Source of the DNA: Candidatus Latescibacterota bacterium
Lineage (GTDB): Bacteria; Latescibacterota; UBA2968; UBA8231
Direction: 5' to 3'
DNA length: 11,896 nucleotides
Assembly: GCA_965242865.1 (NCBI GenBank)
Contig: CBDETK010000002.1
Span: forward strand, 1 to 11,896
A program made the translations under genes and the position numbers. The number at the start of each line of letters is the position of its first letter. The first letter of the stretch is position 1. The notes under the pieces were generated by a model that made no database searches, was not told where the DNA came from, and saw only the letters and a list, made by a program, of their open reading frames with translations. Below are positions 331-10,381 of this stretch, piece by piece.

Positions 331-1326
331 ATGGCCCGAAAGCAACGAAAGCAACATCGGTATGACATAGGCGCGGGGGGTGCGGCGGATGGGGCGACCT
401 TGCGTGCTCGTTGGAAGCTCGGCAGCATCACGGCGGCTATTCGTCAGGCGTTGGCGCGGTCGGTGGCGGACGACCCTCCGGTGGCGGATGTAGCGGCGCT
501 GGTGGCGGACGTAGAGTCGGCCAAAGAGGTTTTGTGGCGCGCGGTGCCCCCCGTGGGGCATGGGCGCGAGGCCCTCCTGCTGGCAGACCATTGTCGTATT
601 GCCGTCGCGGATCTGGTCGATTACAAACGTCGGCTCCAGGCTATTTCGAATTCGTATGCGAAGTTGGAGGCGGATCGCGACGGGTACAAGCGGTCGCTTG
701 CGGAGTGCGCTTCGGAGCGCGATGGGATGCAGGAGACCGTGCTCACCCTCCGGGCGGAGCGCGATGCGTTGCAGGAGGATGTGGCAACCCTTAGGGATCG
801 GATACGCGAGATGGAGGAGGTGCATCATAATACGGTGGAAGCGCAAACGGCGTTGCGGCGGGAGGCGCTGGCGACTCTCGTTGAGGCGGGGTTGTGCGAC
901 CGTGATACGATGCCGCTGCAGGCGGGTGTCAACCAAGCCAGAGACCGGTTCCACAGGGTGCGCGAGGATGTCAAAGCGCTGGAGGCCCATATAGACGCCT
1001 TGAAAGCGCGGGAGAAAGAGCGCAACGACCACTTCGAAAAGTCCCAGCGGGAGGCGGTGCAGGCTCTCGTAGAGGCGGGGTTGTGCGATGAGTGGAAGGC
1101 TGTCGATACGCTGAGCGCCAAAATAGCCCAAGCGGTGGAAAATTATCAGTGGTCTGTTACGAATTGGGGGCGTCTCCAGGACGACCGCGACCGTATCAAG
1201 CGACAGGCCGAACGGGACGTAGAAAGCGCCCGGGTGCGTTGGATGATGTGGACGTGTCTGTCCTTTGCGGCGGGCGCGTCGTTGGCGGTGCTGGCTCTGG
1301 TGGCGTTCGGGGGCTTTTGGCAGTAA
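331..1326 (+). CDS. Hypothetical coiled-coil protein with a C-terminal transmembrane anchor (331 aa)
   Basis: RBS AGGGAGG at 319-325 precedes ATG at 331; the track's TTG at 241 lies inside the repeats. Long E/R/A/L-rich heptad region, duplicated RE(A)xxxLVEAGLCD motif, hydrophobic tail WMMWTCLSFAAGASLAVLALVAFGGFW. Confidence 0.8.
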   Translation: MARKQRKQHRYDIGAGGAADGATLRARWKLGSITAAIRQALARSVADDPPVADVAALVADVESAKEVLWRAVPPVGHGREALLLADHCRIAVADLVDYKRRLQAISNSYAKLEADRDGYKRSLAECASERDGMQETVLTLRAERDALQEDVATLRDRIREMEEVHHNTVEAQTALRREALATLVEAGLCDRDTMPLQAGVNQARDRFHRVREDVKALEAHIDALKAREKERNDHFEKSQREAVQALVEAGLCDEWKAVDTLSAKIAQAVENYQWSVTNWGRLQDDRDRIKRQAERDVESARVRWMMWTCLSFAAGASLAVLALVAFGGFWQ

Positions 1327-1331
1327 AAACA

Positions 1332-1436
1332 GGGCGCGGCTTGGTGTGGGAACCGTTCCCAATCAGCGCGGCGTTTCGTCTCTCTAAAGGAGCCGGATTA
1401 TCCGCGTCGCGGTCTAAAGGTCACCGGGCCGCGCCC
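1332..1436 (+). other. Structured intergenic element (candidate cis-regulatory RNA or ncRNA)
   Basis: GGGCGCGGCTTGGTG (1332-1346) pairs with CACCGGGCCGCGCCC (1422-1436) over 15 bp with 2 G-U pairs. It encloses palindromes at 1347-1361, 1394-1404 and 1402-1412, and TCTAAAGG twice. Confidence 0.5.
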
Positions 1437-1457
1437 ACTAACCGAAGGAGAGGAATC

Positions 1458-1970
1458 ATGTTGTTGGATGAAAAGCAGTTGGAGGATTTGAAGCAGGAAC
1501 AAGCGGAGCACGAGGCGGAGCTGGCTCCGGTACGGGAACGGTTGCTCGAAGCCCGTGCGGAGTTGGCGGAGGCGTCGGAGGGGATCCGCACCCGTCGGGA
1601 CATGGAGCCGCGCCGTGCGGCGTTACCCTTTTTGTGTCGGCGCAACGAGTTGGAGTTGGAGTATGACCGCGTGAAAGCCCAGTTGGATCGGGTGGCCGTG
1701 AAGATCGATCTGGGCAGTAACCCGCATTTGTTCCCTCTCAGGCCGGACGAACCGGAACATTATATGCTCGTTTGGGAGACGACCCTCCACGAGCAGGTGT
1801 GGGTGCGGCGCGATGCGCCTATCGACGATCTGCCGCCCACGGTCCGCGAGAGTTTCCGAAATCGGCTATTAGATGAGGAGCAGAAACGCGAGGCGGCGGA
1901 GGGCCGCCCCACCTACCAGGCTACGAACTACTGGGCCGGCGAGGAGGAGGATGACGAAGATGAAGACTAA
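1458..1970 (+). CDS. Hypothetical acidic protein with N-terminal coiled coil (170 aa)
   Basis: RBS GAAGGAGAGG precedes ATG at 1458; the track's start at 1092 overlaps the upstream gene. Ends in the acidic tail EEEDDEDED. Confidence 0.8.
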   Translation: MLLDEKQLEDLKQEQAEHEAELAPVRERLLEARAELAEASEGIRTRRDMEPRRAALPFLCRRNELELEYDRVKAQLDRVAVKIDLGSNPHLFPLRPDEPEHYMLVWETTLHEQVWVRRDAPIDDLPPTVRESFRNRLLDEEQKREAAEGRPTYQATNYWAGEEEDDEDED

Positions 1971-2331
1971 GACCGAACAACCGTTCGCGCCTATGCGTAA
2001 GGGGCAGGTCATTGCGGTGGCTCGGGTCTGGTGGGACGAGGCGGAGGTGGTCTGGGGGTTTACGCTCGCCCGGGTGGTGCGTACCAATCGCGAGGGGTTT
2101 GTGACGCACTTCGTCTTGAGCACGCGGGACGGGTTCCCCGATGCAACGCCGCGCAAGGCGACCCAAGGCAACACGCTGGGCATTACCGCGTGTTATGATA
2201 TTGGGTGGGGCGCTCAGTCGGTGGGCGACCGCTTAGCGGGCGTCGTCTGGCCCAATCTCAAGGCGGCGCGGAAGGCGATCCGTGCGGCGTATGACGACCT
2301 GCCCCCACCGGAAAAAGGAGACCTAGCATGA
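1960..2331 (+). CDS. Hypothetical phage protein (~123 aa)
   Basis: GAGGAGGAGG at 1941-1950 precedes ATG at 1960 (alternative ATG at 1951). Overlaps the upstream stop, typical of translational coupling. Confidence 0.75.
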   Translation: MKTKTEQPFAPMRKGQVIAVARVWWDEAEVVWGFTLARVVRTNREGFVTHFVLSTRDGFPDATPRKATQGNTLGITACYDIGWGAQSVGDRLAGVVWPNLKAARKAIRAAYDDLPPPEKGDLA

Positions 2332-2402
2332 CCGAGCGCCGTAGCGTAGTAGCCTGTATCTCCCGCGGGCTGAGTCGGGAGTGGATTGAAACCGATGAGT
2401 AA
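2328..2402 (+). CDS. 24-aa micro-ORF (MTERRSVVACISRGLSREWIETDE) reading through repeat locus 2; leader peptide or gene remnant
   Basis: RBS AAAGGAG at 2314-2320, ATGA overlap with the upstream stop, and TAA at 2400-2402 just after the start of the HTH gene (ATGAGTAA). Confidence 0.4.
   Translation: MTERRSVVACISRGLSREWIETDE
2356..2392 (+). CRISPR. Solitary CRISPR-like repeat A (locus 2)
   Basis: GTATCTCCCGCGGGCTGAGTCGGGAGTGGATTGAAAC: 37 nt, perfect 6-bp stem CTCCCG/CGGGAG followed by TGGATTGAAAC. Confidence 0.8.
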
Positions 2403-2859
2403 GCCTACGCGCGGTCGGTCCCGCAGCCCCGTGTCCCGCGGCGAGCATGATGACCAGATACGGGCGTTGTATGAACGTGGCTACACCCACGCTGAGATCG
2501 CGGAGCGGGTTTGTTCAAACCGTACGACGGTCAGCTATCGGATCAAGGCGTTGGAGCTTACGCGGCCGGCGGGACCTCCCCGTCGGCCGCGCATCATCAC
2601 GAGGCGCGGGAAGTTGAAGTCTGGGGCCTACGACAAGGCCGCCTATGACCCACACAAACGCCTCGCGGCGGATATATTGGCTCCCTTGTGTGAGGTTGCG
2701 AAATACGAACCAGACAGCAACGAGGGACGTCTGGCGCGCACCCAACTGCGTTGGGCGATGGGTACTATCGAGTTGAACATCATTGGAGCGTGCATTACAA
2801 TACTGGATGTGGAGCGGCAAGTCGCTGAGTTACTAGACCCTGTATCTCCCGCGGGGTGA
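2395..2859 (+). CDS. Helix-turn-helix DNA-binding protein (154 aa)
   Basis: Motif DDQIRALYERGYTHAEIAERVCSNRTTVSYRIKAL. ATG lies 2 nt after repeat locus 2, and the last codons and stop lie inside repeat locus 3. Confidence 0.8.
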   Translation: MSKPTRGRSRSPVSRGEHDDQIRALYERGYTHAEIAERVCSNRTTVSYRIKALELTRPAGPPRRPRIITRRGKLKSGAYDKAAYDPHKRLAADILAPLCEVAKYEPDSNEGRLARTQLRWAMGTIELNIIGACITILDVERQVAELLDPVSPAG

Positions 2860-2952
2860 AATGGGAGTGGATTGAGTCGTATTTCTCTCTGATTTTTGGA
2901 GAGTGGATTGAAACTGTATAACGCTACTGGATGTGGAGCGGCAAGTCGCTGA
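2791..2952 (+). repeat. Direct repeat flanking repeat locus 3: identical 28-mer at 2801-2828 and 2925-2952 within ~38-45 nt of homology
   Basis: TACTGGATGTGGAGCGGCAAGTCGCTGA occurs twice, preceded by TGCATTACAA (2791-2800) and TGTATAACGC (2915-2924) respectively. Confidence 0.95.
2842..2914 (+). CRISPR. Spacer-less tandem CRISPR-like repeats A (2842-2878) + B (2879-2914), locus 3
   Basis: GTATCTCCCGCGGGGTGAAATGGGAGTGGATTGAGTC immediately followed by GTATTTCTCTCTGATTTTTGGAGAGTGGATTGAAAC. Confidence 0.8.
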
Positions 2953-2974
2953 AATTTTAACGAAGGAGGAGTAG

Positions 2975-3181
2975 ATGAACAAACCACTCAAACGAATGCT
3001 CGATCAGCACACCGCACGGGTTGGTGAGGCTATTCAGTCCCTCGAGGATAAGCTCGCCCAAGCCAAGGGGGCGGCCATGCGGTTAGAGCTCGAAAACGAA
3101 ACGCTACGCGAGAACAACAAACGGCTGACACAGCAACTTGAGGCGGCCCGACGCTACGGGCTAATGGCAGCCGATGAATAA
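2975..3181 (+). CDS. Small coiled-coil hypothetical protein (68 aa)
   Basis: Strong RBS GAAGGAGGAG; heptad pattern IQSLEDKLAQ...LELENETLRENNKRLTQQLE. Confidence 0.8.
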   Translation: MNKPLKRMLDQHTARVGEAIQSLEDKLAQAKGAAMRLELENETLRENNKRLTQQLEAARRYGLMAADE

Positions 3182-3509
3182 TCCGCACGTGTGGGTGCAA
3201 CATTACGACGGCATGGCCGGTCGTTTTTTCAAGCAATACGCCCACGGGCTATGCGCCCTGGTATCCCCGAAAGACCATGTTCACCGCGGGAAGAAAGGGC
3301 GGACGTGGTTTGCGCGTATCAGCCACGGGGCGGGGGGGGCGGTGCCCTATCGACGGGACCCCGATTCCAGTTGCGATGTCATATACCAATCGGGCTTTGA
3401 CACGCCGGAAGCGGCGATGTTGTGGGCGGATAATCAAGTAGCAGCGATCGACAACCTAATAACCAACCAACAACCCAACGGAGGAAGTGAAGATGAACGA
3501 GCAACATGA
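3174..3509 (+). CDS. Hypothetical phage protein (111 aa)
   Basis: 8-nt overlap (ATGAATAA) with the upstream gene. Contains a WFARI...GFDTPEAAMLWAD pattern of the kind seen in small phage accessory proteins. Confidence 0.75.
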   Translation: MNNPHVWVQHYDGMAGRFFKQYAHGLCALVSPKDHVHRGKKGRTWFARISHGAGGAVPYRRDPDSSCDVIYQSGFDTPEAAMLWADNQVAAIDNLITNQQPNGGSEDERAT

Positions 3510-3663
3510 AGCGATGCAGCAAGCGCAGGACGATGCCAAGATCGAGGCGACCCAAGAGGGCGTCCGCATGCAGAACGCGCACGGCGGCGAGCTGGTGATC
3601 AACGAAGGGCTGGTGATGTACCGAAAAGTGCTTTGGGCGTTGCCCGAGCGCAAGACGCCGTAG
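3493..3663 (+). CDS. Small hypothetical protein (56 aa, MNEQHEAMQQ...LPERKTP), not in the supplied ORF track
   Basis: GGAGG at 3480-3484, ATG at 3493, open frame to TAG at 3661-3663. Fills the gap before repeat locus 4. Confidence 0.7.
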   Translation: MNEQHEAMQQAQDDAKIEATQEGVRMQNAHGGELVINEGLVMYRKVLWALPERKTP

Positions 3664-3682
3664 CGTAGTAGCGTAGGACCCT

Positions 3683-3755
3683 GTATCTCCCGCGGGGTGA
3701 GTTGGGAGTGGATTGAGTAGTATTTCTCTCCAAATTTTGGAGAGTGGATTGAAAT
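3683..3755 (+). CRISPR. Spacer-less tandem CRISPR-like repeats A (3683-3719) + B (3720-3755), locus 4
   Basis: GTATCTCCCGCGGGGTGAGTTGGGAGTGGATTGAGTA immediately followed by GTATTTCTCTCCAAATTTTGGAGAGTGGATTGAAAT, whose stem CTCTCCAA/TTGGAGAG is a perfect 8 bp. Confidence 0.8.
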
Positions 3756-3812
3756 TGGAACAAGACGTGCTGGCGCGTGCCCTGCGGCGGCTATCGGATT
3801 GAACCCTCACCC

Positions 3813-3853
3813 CAACGCCCCTGTATCGCCTTCTGAGCGACGCAGGGGCGTTG
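3813..3853. terminator. Strong hairpin between convergent transcription units (possible terminator or RNA 3' stabiliser)
   Basis: CAACGCCCCTG (3813-3823) pairs with CAGGGGCGTTG (3843-3853), with an inner TCGC/GCGA stem. No U-tract on either strand. Confidence 0.45.
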
Positions 3854-3908
3854 CTATGCTATGACACCAGTGGGCGTCCCCCAGCGCGACACGGGGCATC
3901 CGGGGCGC

Positions 3909-6900
3909 TCAATCGACCACTTGGAACGTGATCGGCATATAGATTGTTTCTGTGCCGTCCGACGCAATCAGCACCGCCGGCCGTGGGTATAGGTCGGCGG
4001 TGCTTTGTGCGTTGGCCGACAACTGGAACACGTTGCGCGCTAATGTGCTGCTACGGGCTATTTGCACCGGGCAGCCCGTCGTGTACGCAAAGCGTAGCGT
4101 GTAGGTGATCGTACGCCCCGCCACCGTGCTGGCATACGAGAAGTCCGCATTGGCGGTCTGTCGTTGCGTCCCGCGCGTCCCCTCATTGAACACCACAAAG
4201 TTGCGCGTCCCTTTCTTGATGGGATAGAAGGTCTGCGCGGGGATGCCCGAGGCGTTCGGTAGCTCATACGCCCACGTCAGGTTATTGGCGGCGGCCGACG
4301 CGCCCCCCACAAACGTCTTGAGGGTGCTTAGCTTGACGAAGCGGTTGGGGTCGCCACTGGTGCTCTCATCGCTGACGACCATGCGGTCATCATCGTGCAG
4401 GGTCGTTAGCTCGGTGGTGACATCATCGTGTAGGTCGAACGCAAGCCGGCTTTTTATTTGGGCGAAGGTTACATAGCGGTTCGGGTCACCGGGTATAAGT
4501 TCTGCACTCACCACAAACCTATCATCATTTTGTGGTGAGTGCCCTATGGTAACGTCGTCATGCAGGTCAAACAGGGACCCTATCTGATACTTATACAGCC
4601 TAAGCGGCCTTGCGGTGACGTCGGTATGGCTGGCCGCAATGAACAGGTTGCGGCTGCTGTCGGTCGCCAGATAGACCACACGCTCCGCCGAGCCGCTCGA
4701 CGCGCCAATGGTCAAGCTAAGGCTTAGGTCGTCACTAACCAGACCATTATGTCTTCCATCGGTGGTCAAGTTGCCGCCGTAGAACCATTTGAGTTCGGCG
4801 CGCTCGCCGCCCAAGTCAATCGCAAAGATAGACGTAGCATAATCGGTGGGTAGGTTCATGTTGGCATCTACATACCGACGACGCCCCAACGTCGAGGAAA
4901 CGATTGAACTGCGGCTTGACACCAGCTTCAACCCGCCCGGCGCATCGGTCGAGAACGTGGGGGTGAGGAACGTTCTAAGTGTAGCCAAGGTGGCATAGCG
5001 GTTGGGGTCGCCACTGGCCGACTCGTCGCTCACCAACAGCCTATCGTCATCATGCAGCGCGGCGATAGCCGTTGTTACATCGTCATGCAGGTCAAACGAG
5101 CCGCCGCCACTGCTGCCTATGAACGTCTTGAGGGTTGCCAGCGTGACGTATCGGTTCGGATCGCCTGACACCGACTCATCGCTAACCAGCATCCGATCGC
5201 TCTCGTTCAGTGACGAGATAGCCGTTGTTACATCGTCATGCAGGTCAAACGAACCGCCGCCGCCCGTGCTTAGGCCCGCCGTAATGAAGGTCTTGAGGCT
5301 TGCCAGCGTGACGTAGCGGTTGGGATCGCCGCTGGCCGACTCGTCGCTAACCAACATCCTATCGTCGTTATGCAGGGACGGAATGACTGTGGTAACGTCA
5401 TCGTGCAGATCAAAATCGCCGCCGCCACTACTTAACCCAGCCGTGAAGAACGTCTTGAGGGTGCTGAGGGTGACGTAGCGGTTCGGATCGCCGCTGGCCG
5501 ACTCGTCGCTCACCACCATGCGGTCGTCGTTGTGCAAGGCGGTCAGTTGCGTCGTAACGTCCTCGTGCAGGTCAAAGGCGACGTAGTTTTTAAGGGTTGA
5601 AGCAGTAATGTACACATTGGTATGATCATGAATGTTGCCAAGAAGGAACCTGTCCGTGGCTATCACCGACGATTTGGCGTTTGTGACATCGGAAAACAAT
5701 ACAAAGCCCCCGCGATCAAGCCCCTCGGTGATAAAGGTCTTGAGGAGTCCCAAGGTAATGTATCGGTTGGGATCATTCGTCAATGATTCGTCGCTAACGA
5801 TCATCCGGTCGTTGTTGTGCAGGGATGCGATAGCCGTGGGGACATCCGTATGCACTCTGAAGTCATCGGTAACAGGCAGGTCTTGCCATGTACTGCCATC
5901 CCAATACTCAAGCCCCGAAGGACTGGCATTGTTATACCGTACTTCCCCTTGGCTGCCTATATCGGGTTCGCGGATGGTGACTCGAATGATCTGACTGATC
6001 GTCTCTGTTCCACTCTGAGCAACCCACGTGAACGAACTGATCGTCTCAAGCACCGGCAAGCGCCCTACCACCGCAACGGCCCGCACGGTGGTGTTGACCG
6101 AGAGATAGGACGGCACCCCTTCGGCGCGATAGGCCACGGCCGCCGCCTCGGTGGTCGTGGCCGCCGGCAGTATAGGGGCCGCCGGTTGGAGCACCGCCGT
6201 CCCCACATCGCCCGTAAGAGCGGTCACGCCGCTCTCATCCCATGTAAGCGTAGGCGGAGCCGCCCCCGCAGCAATGCCTTCCGGTATCTGAAAGAGCGAT
6301 ATGTCGTTGACATGATGCGTGAACGTGCTGCGGAACATAAGCGTATTACTCGAGGAACGAGCAATCACCTTCTCGTTGACCAATAAGGCTCCTACTGTCG
6401 TGTCCGCAGCGTATTCATAATCGGTGTTTGCTCTTTCAACCAGGCTGCGTAGCGTCTCTGCACGAACAAAGAAACTGCCGCTCGTCCTATATAGAAGCCG
6501 GTAGTAGAGCAAGCACAATCCACTGGCGGGCAGGGCAATGCCCGTGTCCATCCAACCGGCAGCGTTCGGATCGCCGCCCGAGAGACTACGGTTTCTAAAA
6601 GGCTGCCCTATGCGCGTGATGCTGTTGACATCATTCTGCTCAAGCGTAAGCGAATAAACACGCAACGTTCCCGTGTTAGAAGCCGTGAAACGATCTACGT
6701 CATTGACTATGCGGAACAACAACTGGTTCGACTCAGATCGTGTTAGTTCAATCCATGTGGTGGTACTATATGGGGCTGTGTAATAGAGGTATTGTGCCGC
6801 CGTCGGCCGGCCGCCTCTGCTGGGAGGGAACAGGCGCAATAACGAAGGAGAAAAGACTATGTATCGACCGCTCCAATCATCGACATGTAACAACAACCAC

Positions 6901-9869
6901 CCCGCGGTCGGTAGGGTTATGCCTGTGTTGTAATAATAGGCACTGCCTCGGGCGGCCAGCGTGTAATCGCTGCCCACTTTAGTTATGCCTGAGTCGCCTG
7001 TACCGGGAAACGCGAGACGATAGACGGTAAAGGTGCTATTGAATAAGCGACTAAAATCGGCATCATTAACGGCATCTATCAACAGTTCATGGGTTGCCGA
7101 TTTTGATAGTGTCACAAAAAAATCGCCGGCTGAGACTGCGGTTGTTCCGGTCGTCCCCATCTCGGAACGCATCTCAGCCGCATTAAACAGGTAGCTTGGC
7201 CCTTTTGCGAACTGAAAGAATAGCCAGCCCGTCTCGGGGATGGTAAAGCCGGTGGCCCATTGCGTGGAGCCTGAATAGGTGAACGAATACGTATCGCCTA
7301 TCTGCTCTATCGAATAGTCTGTTGGCAGCCGGTCAATGTTTAAGGTGATCACCTGCGAGATGACTTCGCTGCCGCTGGTCGCCTGCCATACAAAAGAGGC
7401 CGGCCCCATAGGGGCATTACCCGTAGCGGTAACAGCCCGTGTAGCGACGTTAATGCTAAGCCATGACGGGGCATCCACCGCCGCATACACAATAGCCTCC
7501 CCGTCGCCCTGCGTAGCCGACGGCAGCACCGGCGCGGTCGGGTCTAAGGTCTGTGTGCCCTGTGTAACCCGAATACTATAGGCGTCGTCGTTGTCCCATG
7601 TCAGCTTAGACGTAACAGCCGTAACATCCGCCGGCGTTGTAACCTCCACCGTGCTCGCCGGCACGGAGCCGGTCACGAGCGTCCCCGTGGGCAGCCACCA
7701 CGCGGCCCTGATGCGTATCTTCGTCTCGGCGGGTAGGGTGTCGAGAAGAATGTCGTCGCCCACGTCAACGCTCTCGCGCCGCCCTAAGCGCGTATAGGTC
7801 TCGACCGCGCCGGGCAACGGAGCGGTCGTAAGGCTACCCCACTCCAACGAGACCTGCGGAAAGACGGCGTTGGTTATGTTAACCGTCACGCGGTCGTGCA
7901 ACAGGTCCTTCGTGGTGATCGTGGGGGGGGCGGTCGCCTGCTCGGGCAACGGCGTCGTGTCGATCTCGCCTAACGCCGTCGAGGCACCAAACAACGTATC
8001 GGGATCCTCGCGCAGATAGGCTTGAAGCGTAAGCTCTTTCGTTACATTCGTCCTAACCACCCGGAACCGCTCGCCCGCGATCCCTTGCTGCGGATCCGTG
8101 AGGGTGACATAATCCCCGGGGCGCACCGTGAGAAGCGCCAGGTTATCGCGGGGGCGTAAGACGTACGTGCTGCCCCTAAAGAGGCGCAGGTGGCGTAGGG
8201 CCAGCGCGGTAAGGCGTTGCGCGGTGTGGGCATTAGAAACCAACGAGACATCGGGCAGCCGCTTTTTTAGGCGCACGTTGCCATCATCGGTCAGCGCATC
8301 GCTATTCGTCAGTTGGATGTCGTAGGGCTGATAGTTCGCTTGGGCGGCCTGCTCGACCTTACAGGCAACCACGTTGATACGCTCCTCCACCGGGGGGGCG
8401 ACATAAAACGGATTGCTCTGAACAATATCATCCGCGGTGAGCACTCGTGCGCCCGACGGGTAGGCGCGCCCCGGCTCGTAATACACCTTGTCGCCATGCT
8501 CGACGACCGCGCCCTGCCACGCAAAGTCTAACTCCTCCTCCACCGCCCGCGGGTCATCGCTATACTGCACCAGACCCGACACCGGGTATTGAATCGTGCG
8601 CGGCACCAACGCCACCGTGACCGTGCCACCAATCTGCTGAATAATCTTTTGGTGGTCCGCCGCCGAGATCGTCCACGAGGCATAGCCCGTGTGCCAGGTG
8701 GGGTCGGTCTGCCCCGACAGGTCCGCCCGCCGCAACGTACTCGTCGGACGGCCCTCGCCGTCTATGTCATCGGGATGCAGCCAGACCACACCCCCATTCG
8801 CCAGCGTGATTTTTACGGAAACGCTATGCGTCCGCAGCCAATTCCCGATAGGTTGGGTCAGCGTGACGGTATTCGCGGTCTGCGTGGCCGCCTCCACGTT
8901 GACCCGGGCGGTATGCACCGCCCCCGTAGCACTTATCTCTATGTTCGTCAGCAGATGGCCCGACGAAAATGTGCGTTGCGCGTCCGTGCCCGCGGGCGCA
9001 AAGGTGCGCGCAGGCCCCGCCCCCGTCACCGCGCAACTCACCGACAGCACGTCCGCAAACTCGACCGACCGCGCGCATTCGGCTACTGCCGACGTGAACG
9101 CGGTGCTATCCAACGACGCATCCTCATCGCCAAACACGCGCTTGCGGTAGTCGTAGCGGACCACTGCCGCATTTTCGGAAAACGTGGGCGTCGTTTGTCC
9201 CGGCCAAGTCGTTTTGAGACCGCGCACGAGAAAACGGATGTTCGGTACAGAATCCTCGTTCTGCCAATAGCGTATCGTGCGGAACGATTGACCTGCTAAA
9301 ATGCGCTCAGACCGGGCGCTGGTCAGTTTGACATGAACCCAGCTCCAATTTTCCATACGATGGCTGCGCGACCAACCGCCCTTAGCCCACAGGCTGGCAC
9401 CCTGATTGCCGTCCGCCGCGAAGTACTCGCGCAACTCAATCCCGCCATTGAAGTCCAGTATATCCGTTTCACAGGTCAGCCTATCGCCAGTCTCGCCCGT
9501 GGGCGGATCATGGCGGGTGAGCACCGCCGGGCGGTCGTTGATATAGAGACCCTCAATCGCCTCCATCGCGCCGCGACCCAACACATAAGCCAAATGCAAA
9601 TCCACCGGGTTCGCTGGGTCTTGCCAAGCAAAGACCAAGTGCCCCGGAACGTTTGCCCGACCATAGACCAAGCGCGGCGTCAATGGGCCGCTACTGGGTA
9701 CCTGTAATTCGCGCTGTATGCGCTCGTCGTGCGCGGGGTTGCGGTTCAGCAGATAGCCTACCGCACCCAAGCCCAGCGCCGCGGTGACGCCCCAGGGACC
9801 GGAAAGCTGCCACGCCGCCAGTTCACCGCCGACGCTCGTAGCCAGTTTTAAGAAATTTCTGTCGGCCAT
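3909..9869 (-). CDS. Phage tail tip / host-specificity (gpJ-like) protein fused to a repetitive tail fibre/adhesin (1986 aa)
   Basis: N-terminal motifs typical of tail tip proteins (PRLVYGRANVPG, GAMEAIEGLYIND, PNIRFLVRGLK, TFSENAA). Thr/Ser/Gly-rich beta composition, duplicated Ig-like segments, 8 fibre-type repeats, and position after the minor tail genes. Confidence 0.85.
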   Translation of the reverse strand: MADRNFLKLATSVGGELAAWQLSGPWGVTAALGLGAVGYLLNRNPAHDERIQRELQVPSSGPLTPRLVYGRANVPGHLVFAWQDPANPVDLHLAYVLGRGAMEAIEGLYINDRPAVLTRHDPPTGETGDRLTCETDILDFNGGIELREYFAADGNQGASLWAKGGWSRSHRMENWSWVHVKLTSARSERILAGQSFRTIRYWQNEDSVPNIRFLVRGLKTTWPGQTTPTFSENAAVVRYDYRKRVFGDEDASLDSTAFTSAVAECARSVEFADVLSVSCAVTGAGPARTFAPAGTDAQRTFSSGHLLTNIEISATGAVHTARVNVEAATQTANTVTLTQPIGNWLRTHSVSVKITLANGGVVWLHPDDIDGEGRPTSTLRRADLSGQTDPTWHTGYASWTISAADHQKIIQQIGGTVTVALVPRTIQYPVSGLVQYSDDPRAVEEELDFAWQGAVVEHGDKVYYEPGRAYPSGARVLTADDIVQSNPFYVAPPVEERINVVACKVEQAAQANYQPYDIQLTNSDALTDDGNVRLKKRLPDVSLVSNAHTAQRLTALALRHLRLFRGSTYVLRPRDNLALLTVRPGDYVTLTDPQQGIAGERFRVVRTNVTKELTLQAYLREDPDTLFGASTALGEIDTTPLPEQATAPPTITTKDLLHDRVTVNITNAVFPQVSLEWGSLTTAPLPGAVETYTRLGRRESVDVGDDILLDTLPAETKIRIRAAWWLPTGTLVTGSVPASTVEVTTPADVTAVTSKLTWDNDDAYSIRVTQGTQTLDPTAPVLPSATQGDGEAIVYAAVDAPSWLSINVATRAVTATGNAPMGPASFVWQATSGSEVISQVITLNIDRLPTDYSIEQIGDTYSFTYSGSTQWATGFTIPETGWLFFQFAKGPSYLFNAAEMRSEMGTTGTTAVSAGDFFVTLSKSATHELLIDAVNDADFSRLFNSTFTVYRLAFPGTGDSGITKVGSDYTLAARGSAYYYNTGITLPTAGWLLLHVDDWSGRYIVFSPSLLRLFPPSRGGRPTAAQYLYYTAPYSTTTWIELTRSESNQLLFRIVNDVDRFTASNTGTLRVYSLTLEQNDVNSITRIGQPFRNRSLSGGDPNAAGWMDTGIALPASGLCLLYYRLLYRTSGSFFVRAETLRSLVERANTDYEYAADTTVGALLVNEKVIARSSSNTLMFRSTFTHHVNDISLFQIPEGIAAGAAPPTLTWDESGVTALTGDVGTAVLQPAAPILPAATTTEAAAVAYRAEGVPSYLSVNTTVRAVAVVGRLPVLETISSFTWVAQSGTETISQIIRVTIREPDIGSQGEVRYNNASPSGLEYWDGSTWQDLPVTDDFRVHTDVPTAIASLHNNDRMIVSDESLTNDPNRYITLGLLKTFITEGLDRGGFVLFSDVTNAKSSVIATDRFLLGNIHDHTNVYITASTLKNYVAFDLHEDVTTQLTALHNDDRMVVSDESASGDPNRYVTLSTLKTFFTAGLSSGGGDFDLHDDVTTVIPSLHNDDRMLVSDESASGDPNRYVTLASLKTFITAGLSTGGGGSFDLHDDVTTAISSLNESDRMLVSDESVSGDPNRYVTLATLKTFIGSSGGGSFDLHDDVTTAIAALHDDDRLLVSDESASGDPNRYATLATLRTFLTPTFSTDAPGGLKLVSSRSSIVSSTLGRRRYVDANMNLPTDYATSIFAIDLGGERAELKWFYGGNLTTDGRHNGLVSDDLSLSLTIGASSGSAERVVYLATDSSRNLFIAASHTDVTARPLRLYKYQIGSLFDLHDDVTIGHSPQNDDRFVVSAELIPGDPNRYVTFAQIKSRLAFDLHDDVTTELTTLHDDDRMVVSDESTSGDPNRFVKLSTLKTFVGGASAAANNLTWAYELPNASGIPAQTFYPIKKGTRNFVVFNEGTRGTQRQTANADFSYASTVAGRTITYTLRFAYTTGCPVQIARSSTLARNVFQLSANAQSTADLYPRPAVLIASDGTETIYMPITFQVVD
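4311..5864 (-). repeat. Eight intragenic ~45-50 aa repeats FDLHDDVTTxxxxLHxDDRMxVSDESxSGDPNRYVTLxTLKTF (six, then an insert, then two)
   Basis: Directly visible in the translation and as recurring plus-strand DNA motifs such as tcgtgcaggtcaaa and cggttgggatcgcc. One copy is degenerate. Confidence 0.9.
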
Positions 9870-9874
9870 TGAAG

Positions 9875-10381
9875 TTATCCTGTGGCCCGCGCCAGCGGCC
9901 AGTCAAATTTCTTTTCGCTCACTTCATACATGAAGTCTAATCCAATATCGGGGTCGCCCACGCGCTCATTTTCGCGTTGTCGTTCGGGCGTCCAAACGGC
10001 GTCCGGTTTCAACAAGTTGAACTTGCGCTTGGAGACTTCCAACAACCATTCACCGGCCTTATCAACGGTGCTCTGTCCTGCCGTCCCCGTGAAGCGATAG
10101 CCCGTATCGGCCCATGCGCCGCCGTCCTCCCGCGAGAGAAGATAAACCGACACGGCCGCCGGCCCCAGGTCTTCCGGTAGGGTCTGCCGTTGGGCGTCCG
10201 AGAGGGCGATAGCCACCGCCAACGACGGCTCCGTCCCCGCCTCCAGCGTGTGCTGCGGGAAACGGACGTCGAGCAGCCGCCCCCCACCGCGATACACCTC
10301 GCTCTCAAACGTAATGTCGTCGGGGAACGTCGCCAAGCGCAACGTCGTTCCGATCTTCAAGAGAATAGCCGCGAACTGCAT
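9875..10381 (-). CDS. Minor tail protein (hub/DUF2163-like by position and motifs)
   Basis: GAGGAGG lies 7 nt before the ATG at 10381 (TGATG overlap). Motifs DITFESEVYRGGGRLL and WTPERQ...GDPDIGLDF; lies between the distal-tail-like gene and the tail tip gene. Confidence 0.7.
   Translation of the reverse strand: MQFAAILLKIGTTLRLATFPDDITFESEVYRGGGRLLDVRFPQHTLEAGTEPSLAVAIALSDAQRQTLPEDLGPAAVSVYLLSREDGGAWADTGYRFTGTAGQSTVDKAGEWLLEVSKRKFNLLKPDAVWTPERQRENERVGDPDIGLDFMYEVSEKKFDWPLARATG

Follow-up and report, generated by a model that had tools for sequence, protein, structure and literature searches.

Gene layout and repeats around a duplicated gene end

The stretch of DNA analysed here (the window, 11,896 nt) is the whole contig C2 of a tailed-phage variant that was assembled together with a 5.6-Mb host, and phage hallmark genes (portal, Clp protease and tape measure) lie on contigs C11 and C4. 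All three phage contigs carry dispersed type I-C-like CRISPR repeats, each composed of a hairpin and the 11-nt handle TGGATTGAAAC, and C2 holds seven full units and one partial unit on 11.9 kb. Folding and alignment with the host repeat delimited repeat A (2356–2392, + strand, 37 nt; hairpin CTCCCG/CGGGAG plus TGGATTGAAAC), which matched the Rfam family CRISPR-DR9 at 28.8 bits (E 0.0043), under the gathering score of 45, and which ends 2 nt before the ATG of an HTH-like gene. The folds of all repeats were judged from single sequences rather than by a column-wise covariation count, because a MAFFT alignment of 12 repeats placed the host 5' stem arm two columns off.

The HTH-like gene (2395–2859, + strand, 154 aa; taken from the ORF list, its end translated again) is named after sub-threshold Pfam hits of residues 23–57 to HTH_38, HTH_7, HTH_24 and Terminase_5. 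Its product had a single weak match in PHROGs, to an HNH family (E 4.3e-4), gave E values of 0.042 and 0.31 against PDB sequences and found no match in NCBIfam; the other nine proteins of the window had no match in PHROGs. The last 9 codons and the TGA of the gene (LLDPVSPAG-stop) come from the linker and first repeat of an 86-nt cassette, which consists of a 13-nt linker (GTTACTAGACCCT) and two abutting type I-C-like repeats, both on the + strand and both delimited by fold and alignment: repeat A' (2842–2878, 37 nt, also found by repeat search), with an altered 3' end (TGGATTGAGTC), and repeat B (2879–2914, 36 nt; hairpin CTCTC/GAGAG plus TGGATTGAAAC), whose hairpin ends immediately before TGGATTGAAAC in the single-sequence fold. 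A' and B directly adjoin without a spacer, so the cassette does not have the layout of a mini-array, that is, at least two repeats split by one or two spacers together with a leader. The next repeat-like unit after repeat B starts at 3683 and belongs to the double repeat A''+B'' (3683–3755, + strand), which closes a + strand operon, is paralogous to the cassette and is its closest relative: positions 2836–2916 of the window are 88.9% identical over 81 nt to C4 5506–5586, a site that corresponds to the A''+B'' module. Between them begins the next gene (2975–3181, + strand), which encodes a coiled-coil-like protein of 68 aa without family assignment.

A repeat search of the window returned a two-copy direct repeat of 38 nt, 2791–2828 (copy 1) and 2915–2952 (copy 2), with 34 of 38 positions identical (89%) and an exact core of 28 nt (2801–2828 and 2925–2952). 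When the window was shuffled 50 times with dinucleotides preserved, no exact direct repeat exceeded 18 nt (the longest per shuffle averaged 13.5 nt), so the 28-nt core is not a product of chance. Copy 1 is coding sequence from the 3' part of the HTH-like gene (CITILDVERQVAE, + strand) and is preceded by GCG (2788–2790); 2791–2859 translates as CITILDVERQVAELLDPVSPAG followed by a stop. Copy 2 heads an untranslated stretch on the + strand, 2915–2974 (60 nt), that would encode the remainder of a gene end (CITLLDVERQVAEILTKEE and a stop): 2906–2977 reads D, stop, NCITLLDVERQVAEILTKEE, stop, M, its frame being closed upstream by the TGA inside ATTGAAAC and a start of its own being absent. This stretch carries AAGGAGG (2963–2969), the ribosome-binding site (RBS) of the next gene, and its TAG (2972–2974) abuts the ATG at 2975. 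Three statements of an initial annotation of the locus, made from sequence alone, were reproduced by repeat search and re-translation, namely a 34/38 match with all differences in the first 10 nt, a copy 2 reading frame without its own start, and a TAG–ATG junction with an RBS within the copy region.

Copy 2 begins at the first base after the full repeat B, exactly where a spacer would; a random recombination joint need not fall there, which counts against a recombinational origin. A sigma-70-like site, TTGAAC-17-TACAAT (2773–2801, + strand), has its −10 element in the head of copy 1 and is a consensus match only (9/12 positions); the three such sites found compare with 1.2 ± 1.2 in shuffles, which is not significant. 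Ribosome hopping over the 124 nt between the two 28-mers was considered and set aside: known cases span far shorter gaps, and the take-off region is not followed by a stop.

The four mismatches of copy 2 lie at copy positions 3, 6, 9 and 10, all within the first 10 of 38 nt, an arrangement that an even spread would give in 210 of 73815 cases (about 0.003, by our own arithmetic). Third-codon positions account for three of them; the remaining one turns ATA into CTA, a conservative replacement of I by L. The differences look like allelic differences of a coding sequence, mostly synonymous, and their clustering at the copy head fits a putative crossover boundary beside the cassette.

A cassette-free allele on a sister contig

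Contig C4 of the same assembly carries an uninterrupted allele of the HTH-like gene that ends CITILDVERQVAEILTKEE and a stop, without the cassette. This allele reads TGCATTACAA, the 28-mer and AATTTTAACGAAGGAGGAGTAGATG; it encodes a 151-aa protein, and its stop abuts the ATG of the next gene. Over C2 382–3074 the two contigs differ by two substitutions and one 124-nt indel, and the 124 nt missing from C4 amount to one 38-mer equivalent plus 86 nt. The aligner puts this identical indel at 2801–2924; the block absent from C4 (2829–2924, + strand) contains the linker, A', B and the first 10 nt of copy 2, which form its diverged head, and is inherited as one unit. Copy 1 and the C4 allele are identical over the 38 nt, and 2925–3074 (150 nt) is identical to, and colinear with, the native C4 gene end and next gene. 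Past 3075 the divergence between C2 and C4 rises to about 3.7% (39 mismatches and 12 gap openings in 1533 aligned columns, C2 2925–4441); set against this, the near-identity over 382–3074 places the indel inside a recently shared tract. A recombination scar implies a sister that lacks one repeat copy and the insert between near-identical flanks, and C4 is such a sister.

Repeats and co-assembled variants (C2, C4 and C11) favour misjoins, and we therefore weighed a chimeric join of two repeat-containing regions as the source of the C2 form. An independent assembler recovered the same joints in three runs, X1, X2 and X3, which all stem from a single study and may have supplied the assembly itself: a 2247-nt contig of X3 covers 2200–3021 gap-free, and 156-nt contigs of X1 and X2 span 2799–2954 with 0 differences. 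Since independent contigs bridge the joints in all three runs, the C2 form is not an assembly artefact, an explanation to which we give next to no probability. The contigs of X1 and X2 do break at 2828 and 2925, as a misjoin might; however, these breaks fall exactly where the C2 and C4 forms part, like a graph bubble. It is these two breaks that suggest that both forms may co-occur in X1 and X2, for which no contig with the 124-nt skip was listed.

Relatives beyond C4 were scarce. Pattern searches for the HTH-like gene gave 34 matches in viral_contigs and 588 in genome_contigs, none of which was confirmed, and a search of 5.8 billion proteins yielded one hit among 111 candidates, the C4 allele, the only relative found. 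Among 41 genomes of relatives, two matched the gene, one being the own genome and the other a weak match of 35% identity (E 4e-5). The first 4000 nt of the window, compared with 31 genomes of the genus, matched the own genome and, in two others, only an unrelated 80-nt stretch (75% identity at 1272–1351), while the 28-mer with at most three mismatches occurred only in the own genome among 132 genomes of the class. There were no matches to the 23-mer of the shared core in viral_contigs, metagenome_contigs or genome_contigs, to two repeat-family patterns in viral_contigs or to the A'/B junction pattern in metagenome_contigs, nor any blastn match of 1873–3800 in a phage collection; these collections may leave out records of this genome or of very near ones.

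Within the phage contigs, sequence from just upstream recurs after other repeats. Of 14 repeat sites in C2, C4 and C11, among them several orthologous pairs, three have in the 45 nt after the repeat a significant copy of sequence from within 220 nt upstream (a score that 0 of 300 shuffles reached). These sites, each with a gene-end copy, are C2 2915, C4 27102 and C11 5326. At C4 27102, 20 nt of the upstream gene end recur exactly, TAG included, inside an 85-nt indel relative to C11; at C11 5326 the copies are identical at 15 of 17 positions (AACGAGTTGCTTTGATT and AACGAGATGCTTTAATT) and end in TGA and TAA, respectively. The copy starts at the exact repeat boundary with certainty at C11 5326, and the start is ambiguous by 4 to 10 nt elsewhere.

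Such duplications, about 17, 24 and 38 nt long at the three cassette sites, would also arise if the cassette had entered a C4-like gene end in place and duplicated some 38 nt of its target, either by template switching at the repeat hairpins while the DNA replicates or through off-target integration by the host Cas1-Cas2 integrase with the 37-nt repeat as its ruler, the head of one copy being changed by later exchange or mutation. The length of the duplication (38 nt) is indeed close to that of the repeat (37 nt), the right joint lies at the exact repeat boundary, and the end of the 38-mer (GAGCGGCAAGTCGCTGAG) is homeologous to GAGCGCAAGACGCCGTAG (3645–3663), upstream of the paralogous module. 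We nevertheless consider such an insertion unlikely. The 86-nt insert far exceeds the host spacers of 34–37 nt, the duplicated length varies among the sites, and the unit at C4 27102 includes about 10 nt before the canonical repeat start, unlike a repeat duplication made by the integrase. In addition, four mismatches (three of them wobble) within 10 nt beside 28 identical positions are not expected from drift of a recent copy.

The host type I-C system and a possible guide function

The host has a complete type I-C cas operon adjoining an array of 41 repeats. Its 37-nt repeat ends CGGATTGAAAC, the handle being near-identical to that of the phage repeats, and the spacers of the array are 34–37 nt long. 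The cassette thus resembles a solitary repeat unit or Racr, in that a mobile element carries a mimic of the repeats of its host's CRISPR subtype. Host spacers 26, 36, 37 and 38 partially match contigs C6, C9 and C12, and the mixed 5' flanks of these matches (TTT, ACT, GAT, GCC, GCA, ATC and ATT) do not allow a host PAM to be derived; the PAM of 5'-TTC used here is the type I-C PAM given in papers (bioRxiv 10.1101/2024.12.27.630466; PMC8406640) and not a measurement in this host.

These features raise the possibility that copy 2 is a working guide, in which case host Cas5c would cut repeat B, the RNA of TGGATTGAAAC and 2915 to ~2950 would be loaded into I-C Cascade and would interfere with a sister phage whose HTH-gene end matches perfectly, and the carrier would escape owing to its GCG flank and the mismatches at the head. 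Copy 2 does follow the hairpin and 11-nt 5' handle of repeat B, as a spacer would, and its mismatches lie at the PAM-proximal end. The lack of a following repeat at spacer distance (34–37 nt in the host) speaks against a spacer, but the missing downstream repeat would not bar loading, because one I-C repeat is enough for a crRNA-like RNA: the crRNA-like RNAs described from single-repeat type I-C units bind Cascade, begin with an 11-nt 5' handle and vary at their 3' end (bioRxiv 10.1101/2024.12.27.630466). According to PMC6858448, the spacers of virus-borne mini-arrays target sites near the arrays, at which the carrier has point mutations. A genuine mini-array with a spacer matching relatives is present on C4 (12364–12543), where three repeats enclose spacers of 35 and 34 nt, with TATATT upstream and the last repeat truncated before a terminator hairpin. 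Its spacer 1 partially matches nearby phage genes at C2 10207–10241 (5 mismatches), C11 846–880 (4) and C4 12901–12935 (5), with the mismatches clustered at the 5' end and a non-PAM flank, GGA. This mismatch pattern is like that of copy 2 and is what would be expected of an immune allele facing a real phage-borne spacer, an observation that does not favour a scar.

The target side, however, argues against a working guide. The only partial targets found are C2 2791 and C4 4728, both flanked by GCG instead of TTC and mismatched at positions 3, 6, 9 and 10; an Ala codon precedes the target in both alleles, whereas a TTC flank would need Phe. No perfect target was present in any collection searched, and to a guide, copy 1 of the carrier and the C4 allele would look alike. 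For the same reason we set aside a homing-like drive that would cut cassette-free alleles. Furthermore, copy 2 is colinear with the native downstream sequence and hence was not acquired as a spacer. It does not show the PAM-proximal partial pairing to a promoter beside TTC or TTA that marks crRNA-like regulatory RNAs; it would pair at PAM-distal positions 11–38, beside GCG, with a coding 3' end. Taken together, a functioning guide at 2915 appears very unlikely.

A related idea treats the gene-end copy as a locally made nascent spacer. On this view, repeats of this phage group would gain adjacent gene ends through duplication or recombination instead of Cas1-Cas2 adaptation, and host Cas5c and Cascade would turn repeat plus gene end into guides against sister phages with the matching allele, the carrier being protected by mismatches in the head and by a flank that is not a PAM. 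We regard this idea as improbable. If true, it would make the copies at C2 2915, C4 27101 and C11 5325 stages of one process and would explain why viral spacers target sites beside their own mini-arrays, which is described as unexplained in PMC6858448.

A probable remnant gene end and its relation to known systems

In our view the 38-mer is probably a recombination scar linked to a repeat cassette that is gained and lost, and not a captured spacer. It would be the head of a 60-nt remnant (2915–2974) of the 3' end that the HTH-like gene originally had, the 86-nt cassette having been placed between two gene-end copies. The upstream copy would retain most of the protein C-terminus, now reading into the cassette (LLDPVSPAG-stop), and the downstream copy, no longer translated, would still provide the RBS and the TAG–ATG junction for the next gene. 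In the last 10 nt of block 2829–2924, a gene-end allele of older or foreign origin would survive, whereas homologous recombination with sister phages circulating alongside would have made the sequence outside the block uniform, leaving a presence/absence polymorphism of the cassette. Loss could proceed by recombination between the 28-nt direct repeats, which would give exactly the C4 allele, and gain by ordinary homologous exchange with a cassette-bearing genome. We can only infer the order of these events, because there is no outgroup and none of the sequences showed an intact gene that has the TGTATAACGC head. The repeats themselves may act on the host I-C system, either by serving as Racr-type RNA decoys or by giving Cas5c places at which to process the operon transcript.

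The initial annotation had weighed two hypotheses for the copy, and they fared differently. The one it favoured, an original gene end into which a cassette arrived by recombination between related phages, gains support from the C4 allele, the colinear downstream sequence, the allelic type of the mismatches and the two further sites with gene-end copies; the other, a crRNA-like guide, found none, given the missing perfect target, the GCG flank and the PAM-proximal mismatches. Of the checks and refuting observations it named, the search for a cassette-free HTH allele ending EILTKEE led to C4 and that for sequence spanning the joints to bridging contigs in three runs, while perfect targets of the 2915 region were absent from the viral, metagenome, genome and phage collections and from the genomes of the class.

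The setting is less ordinary than the scar, in that the operons of a tailed phage contain mimics of the host's type I-C repeat at many points, and co-occurring sister genomes differ in the presence of repeat cassettes and of a true mini-array. The picture that emerges is one of solitary repeat units gained and lost in packed phage operons in ways that spare the coding ends and RBSs of their neighbours, and it offers a testable link to the unexplained closeness of viral mini-array spacers and their targets. Where modules join in mosaic phage genomes, such as those of lambdoid phages or of T4-like phages with stem-loop-mediated cassette shuffling, there are remnants of genes and short repeats at the boundaries. 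The locus shares with such joints a cassette flanked by the leftover of a resident gene, presence or absence between sisters and preserved expression signals for the next gene, but what marks the boundary here is a CRISPR repeat of the subtype that the host itself carries, with the joint exactly at its last base.

Racr units, including the type I-C RacrIC1, are described as intergenic CRISPR-repeat mimics of phages whose hosts have the matching subtype, co-transcribed with neighbouring genes, RacrIC1 lying 11 nt downstream of a gene on the same transcript (PMC10651486). Here, by contrast, there are many units per genome, some in abutting pairs without a spacer and one pair inside a gene end; the finding concerns the flank of a repeat unit and not the unit, and the anti-CRISPR role of the units is putative. 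With the virus-borne mini-arrays described in PMC6858448 the locus shares a repeat followed by a match to a nearby gene of co-occurring relatives, with point differences in the carrier, whereas no repeat follows 2915, the sequence there runs colinear with the native gene end and next gene, and the cassette is missing altogether from the sister allele. The type I-C crRNA-like regulatory RNAs described in bioRxiv 10.1101/2024.12.27.630466 likewise combine a single I-C repeat with a partly matching pseudo-spacer in an RNA with an 11-nt 5' handle; they pair PAM-proximally (16 bp) beside TTC or TTA at a promoter, whereas the match here is PAM-distal, beside GCG and at a gene end.

Duplicated gene end and its cassette-free allele

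A repeat search of the window returned a 38-nt direct repeat, 2791–2828 and 2915–2952, with 34 of 38 positions identical and a spacing of 124 nt, bearing out the duplication claimed in the initial annotation; in 50 dinucleotide-preserving shuffles of the window, the longest exact direct repeat was at most 18 nt. Copy 1 closes a gene that sub-threshold profile matches tentatively label HTH-like, and translates as CITILDVERQVAELLDPVSPAG and a stop. Copy 2, directly after repeat B, translates as CITLLDVERQVAEILTKEE and a stop, with an in-frame TGA inside ATTGAAAC before it and the ATG of 2975 immediately after; AAGGAGG lies at 2963–2969. The copies differ at positions 3, 6, 9 and 10, the other 28 nt being identical. 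Three of the four mismatches fall at third-codon positions, the remaining one changing ATA to CTA, and by our own arithmetic an even spread of mismatches over the 38 nt would place all four within the first 10 with a probability of about 0.003.

The cassette-free allele that the initial annotation had proposed to seek in related phages is present in the sister phage contig C4, which reads TGCATTACAA, the shared 28-mer and AATTTTAACGAAGGAGGAGTAGATG. The C4 protein has 151 aa and ends in CITILDVERQVAEILTKEE and a stop, with the next gene directly after. From 382 to 3074, the window contig (C2) and C4 are distinguished by two positions (1560 and 2614) and a single 124-nt indel, and the indel therefore lies within a tract very recently common to both genomes. 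Divergence starts at 3075, and the alignment of 2925–4441, 1533 columns long, contains 39 mismatches and 12 gap openings. Past its head, starting at 2925, copy 2 is nothing other than the native end of the gene continuing into the native next gene, and the block inherited with the cassette is 2829–2924, comprising the linker, repeats A' and B, and the 10-nt diverged head. Outside the assembly, searches of viral and genome contigs, relatives' genomes and proteins found no relatives of the HTH-like gene, and an intact gene carrying the TGTATAACGC head was not encountered.

Beyond this tract, indels of 1–4 nt relative to C4 (at 3075, 3094, 3111, 3173, 3242, 3401, 3425 and 3471) hit the two small genes after the remnant and shift their frames locally; Logan contigs match the C2 form over 2925–3320. 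The minus strand at 3909–9869 holds a 1986-aa ORF with internal repeats at about 4960–5580 and no Pfam or PHROG match as scanned. Its C4 counterpart is longer (2192 aa) and partly just 70–83% identical, and the ORF probably encodes a variable protein of the tail or of host recognition.

We also checked Logan contigs from three runs (X1–X3) of one study, possibly the source of the assembly. A 2247-nt contig of X3 spans 2200–3021 without gaps, and 156-nt contigs of X1 and X2 cover 2799–2954 with zero differences. Since the C2 form was reproduced in three runs, we rejected an assembly artefact. Neighbouring Logan contigs stop at 2828 and restart at 2925, the two positions at which the C2 form parts from that of C4. 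Both forms are in the assembly; no contig across the C4 joint was among those listed for the three runs, and we therefore infer the co-occurrence of both forms there.

Host-like repeats on the phage contigs

The window is C2 in its entirety (11,896 nt). It belongs to an assembly of 13 contigs whose 5.6-Mb chromosome, C13, carries an array of 41 repeats (37 nt, ending GAGCGGATTGAAAC) with spacers of 34–37 nt. Seven of the ten ORFs scanned beside it, on its higher-coordinate flank, match Cas2, Cas1c, Cas4, Cas7/Csd2, Cas8c/Csd1, Cas5c and Cas3, a set that amounts to a type I-C system; the remaining three are not cas genes. C4 is colinear with C2 in alignment and C11, another sister contig, aligns with it in part. 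Both encode portal, Clp-type prohead protease and tape-measure proteins (Pfam matches for 6 of 10 proteins scanned), and C2, C4 and C11 are therefore variants of a tailed phage. Host spacers 26, 36, 37 and 38 match the small contigs C9, C12 and C6 with 2–8 mismatches, mostly near the 5' end; matches of spacers 36, 37 and 38 on C9 and C12 mostly recur at intervals of about 10.4–10.5 kb, a spacing that would suit a small circular element whose assembly went round twice.

Units ending GAGTGGATTGAAAC/T are dispersed on C2, C4 and C11, with only one doubtful site (on C8) elsewhere in the assembly. All 17 units folded have a hairpin ending directly before the 11-nt TGGATTGAAAC, while the stem arms vary: CTCCCC/GGGGAG in the host repeat, and CTTCCG/CGGAAG, CTCCCG/CGGGAG, CTCTC/GAGAG or CTCTCCTTC/GAGGGAGAG among other units. 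In type I-C systems, Cas5c processing is described as leaving an 11-nt 5' handle (bioRxiv 10.1101/2024.12.27.630466). Repeat B is a full 36-nt repeat (2879–2914) directly adjoining the 37-nt repeat A' (2842–2878), whose 3' end is changed to GAGTC. Over 81 nt, window 2836–2916 shares 88.9% identity with C4's version of the pair at 3683–3755, of which A' and B are a paralogue.

Further units were seen in varied settings. Repeat A (2356–2392) is covered by a 24-codon ORF, MTERRSVVACISRGLSREWIETDE and a stop (2328–2402); its ATG overlaps the upstream gene's TGA (ATGA), an AAGGAG motif precedes it and its 3' end runs over the start codon of the HTH-like gene, so repeat A may be translated through as a coupling ORF. 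A cluster at 211–317, just before an RBS and the ATG at 331, consists of a full repeat (211–247), a partial copy of its 3' half (248–271) and a third, long-looped repeat (278–317); C4 has several indels there relative to C2, and its third unit has no handle. The stretch behind the double repeat of 3683–3755 (3756–3853) begins with some 40 nt. These lead to CGGATTGAAC, which could be what is left of a terminal repeat, and next comes a GC-rich hairpin (GCCCCTG...CAGGGGC) lying where the operons converge; possibly the operon ends here in a degenerate mini-array with a single spacer. In G042, a genome of the host's genus (L026, near position 1500, minus strand), a solitary hairpin, CCTCCCC-AA-GGGGAG with TGGATTGAAAC behind it, stands directly after a stop codon and before a start, and is a repeat mimic in another genome of that genus.

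The closest known things to these repeats are phage solitary repeat units, described as RNA anti-CRISPRs, a type I-C example of which is co-transcribed 11 nt behind a gene (PMC10651486). By analogy, the phage repeats may act as RNA anti-CRISPRs; on a par with this, they may be Cas5c cleavage sites that split the operon transcript into separate mRNAs. In reverse complement, host spacer 5 (C13, ~3525470–3525510) reads AGAGTGGATTGAAAC and then a T-rich stretch. This corresponds to a phage B-type repeat end in its T variant, not the host's C variant, plus its flank, suggesting that the host adaptation machinery sampled a related phage across such a repeat.

Gene-end copies at other repeats

We compared the 45 nt after each repeat with the 220 nt before it at 14 sites in C2, C4 and C11, several of which are orthologous pairs, and three sites outscored all 300 shuffles. 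The C2 site after repeat B gave the 28-nt exact match. At C4 27102, the repeat is followed by 20 nt that exactly reproduce the closing codons and TAG of the upstream gene; the head of this copy has AAG TTG in place of AAA CTG, and the copy lies inside an 85-nt indel relative to C11. At C11 5326, AACGAGATGCTTTAATT follows the repeat and the upstream gene ends AACGAGTTGCTTTGATT (TAA versus TGA stops). At all three sites the downstream copy leads on to the next gene's RBS and start, and the upstream copies have the flanks GCG, GTC and GCC, none of them TTC. The unit duplicated at C4 27102 extends some 10 nt beyond the canonical start of the repeat on the upstream side; this speaks for a longer unit having been duplicated or recombined, and against integrase-made repeat duplication. 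That such gene-end copies in general are nascent, locally made spacers is improbable.

Aligned with C11 16130–16290, C4 26984–27173 (minus strand) has an 85-nt insertion containing a second repeat unit, before which the final 24 nt of the upstream gene recur in diverged form and after which comes a 9-nt duplication, GATTGAAAC. C11 5201–5560 has promoter-like sequence and then a solitary repeat in a gene's 5' UTR; C4 17981–18420 shares the promoter, but its insert is another one, which forms a CTCTC/GAGAG hairpin and lacks the handle. Both carry a diverged upstream-gene-end copy before the RBS.

Guide or recombination scar

The initial annotation had offered the 38-mer as a crRNA-like guide or, alternatively, as the original gene end left by a cassette that arrived by recombination. 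Since single-repeat I-C units are described as yielding Cascade-bound RNAs with an 11-nt handle and variable 3' end (bioRxiv 10.1101/2024.12.27.630466), the missing downstream repeat alone does not dismiss a guide, and the same phage group has a true mini-array. However, the 38-mer is colinear with its native context and hence was not acquired; the sole partial targets are flanked by GCG and mismatched at the PAM-proximal end; such a guide could not distinguish copy 1 of the carrier itself from the C4 allele; and no perfect target was found in viral, metagenome and genome contigs, a phage collection or genomes of the class. A working type I-C guide is thus highly improbable.

The mini-array (C4 12364–12543, corresponding to window 9870–9885, where C2 has none) comprises three repeats and two spacers (35 and 34 nt) behind a TATATT promoter-like leader; two repeats are nearly identical to the host repeat, and the last is truncated and leads into a terminator hairpin and a run of T. 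A nearby gene is matched by spacer 1 at window 10207–10241 (reverse strand, 5 mismatches), at C11 846–880 (4) and in C4 itself at 12901–12935 (5); the mismatches form a cluster at the 5' end, and the flank is GGA. Spacer 2 has no match in the assembly.

Recombination, supported by the cassette-free C4 allele and the colinearity of copy 2 with the native next gene, is the simplest account of the duplication. The repeat cassette would have landed inside the 3' end of the HTH-like gene, leaving a gene end on either side: the upstream copy would keep the protein, now ending in the cassette-encoded LLDPVSPAG and a stop, and the downstream copy the RBS of the next gene. Insertion without such duplication in a tightly packed operon would wreck one or other neighbour, which may be why gene-end duplication recurs. 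Exchange with cassette-free sister genomes would homogenise the sequence up to the nearest possible crossover, so that an older or foreign allele would survive only in the 10 nt adjoining the cassette; this would explain both the clustering and the mostly synonymous nature of the mismatches. The last event could have run in either direction, as gain from a cassette-bearing genome or as loss between the 28-nt repeats, which would give exactly the C4 sequence. We conclude that the 38-mer is most likely a recombination scar, tied to a cassette of type I-C repeats that mimic the host's and is subject to gain and loss.

Medvedeva et al. (PMC6858448) describe carriers of viral mini-arrays with point mutations in the targets, and a closeness of targets to the mini-arrays that they leave unexplained; the pattern of spacer 1 in C4 is that of just such carriers. 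The known kinds nearest to the cassette are solitary repeat units and viral mini-arrays, of which it is a variant.
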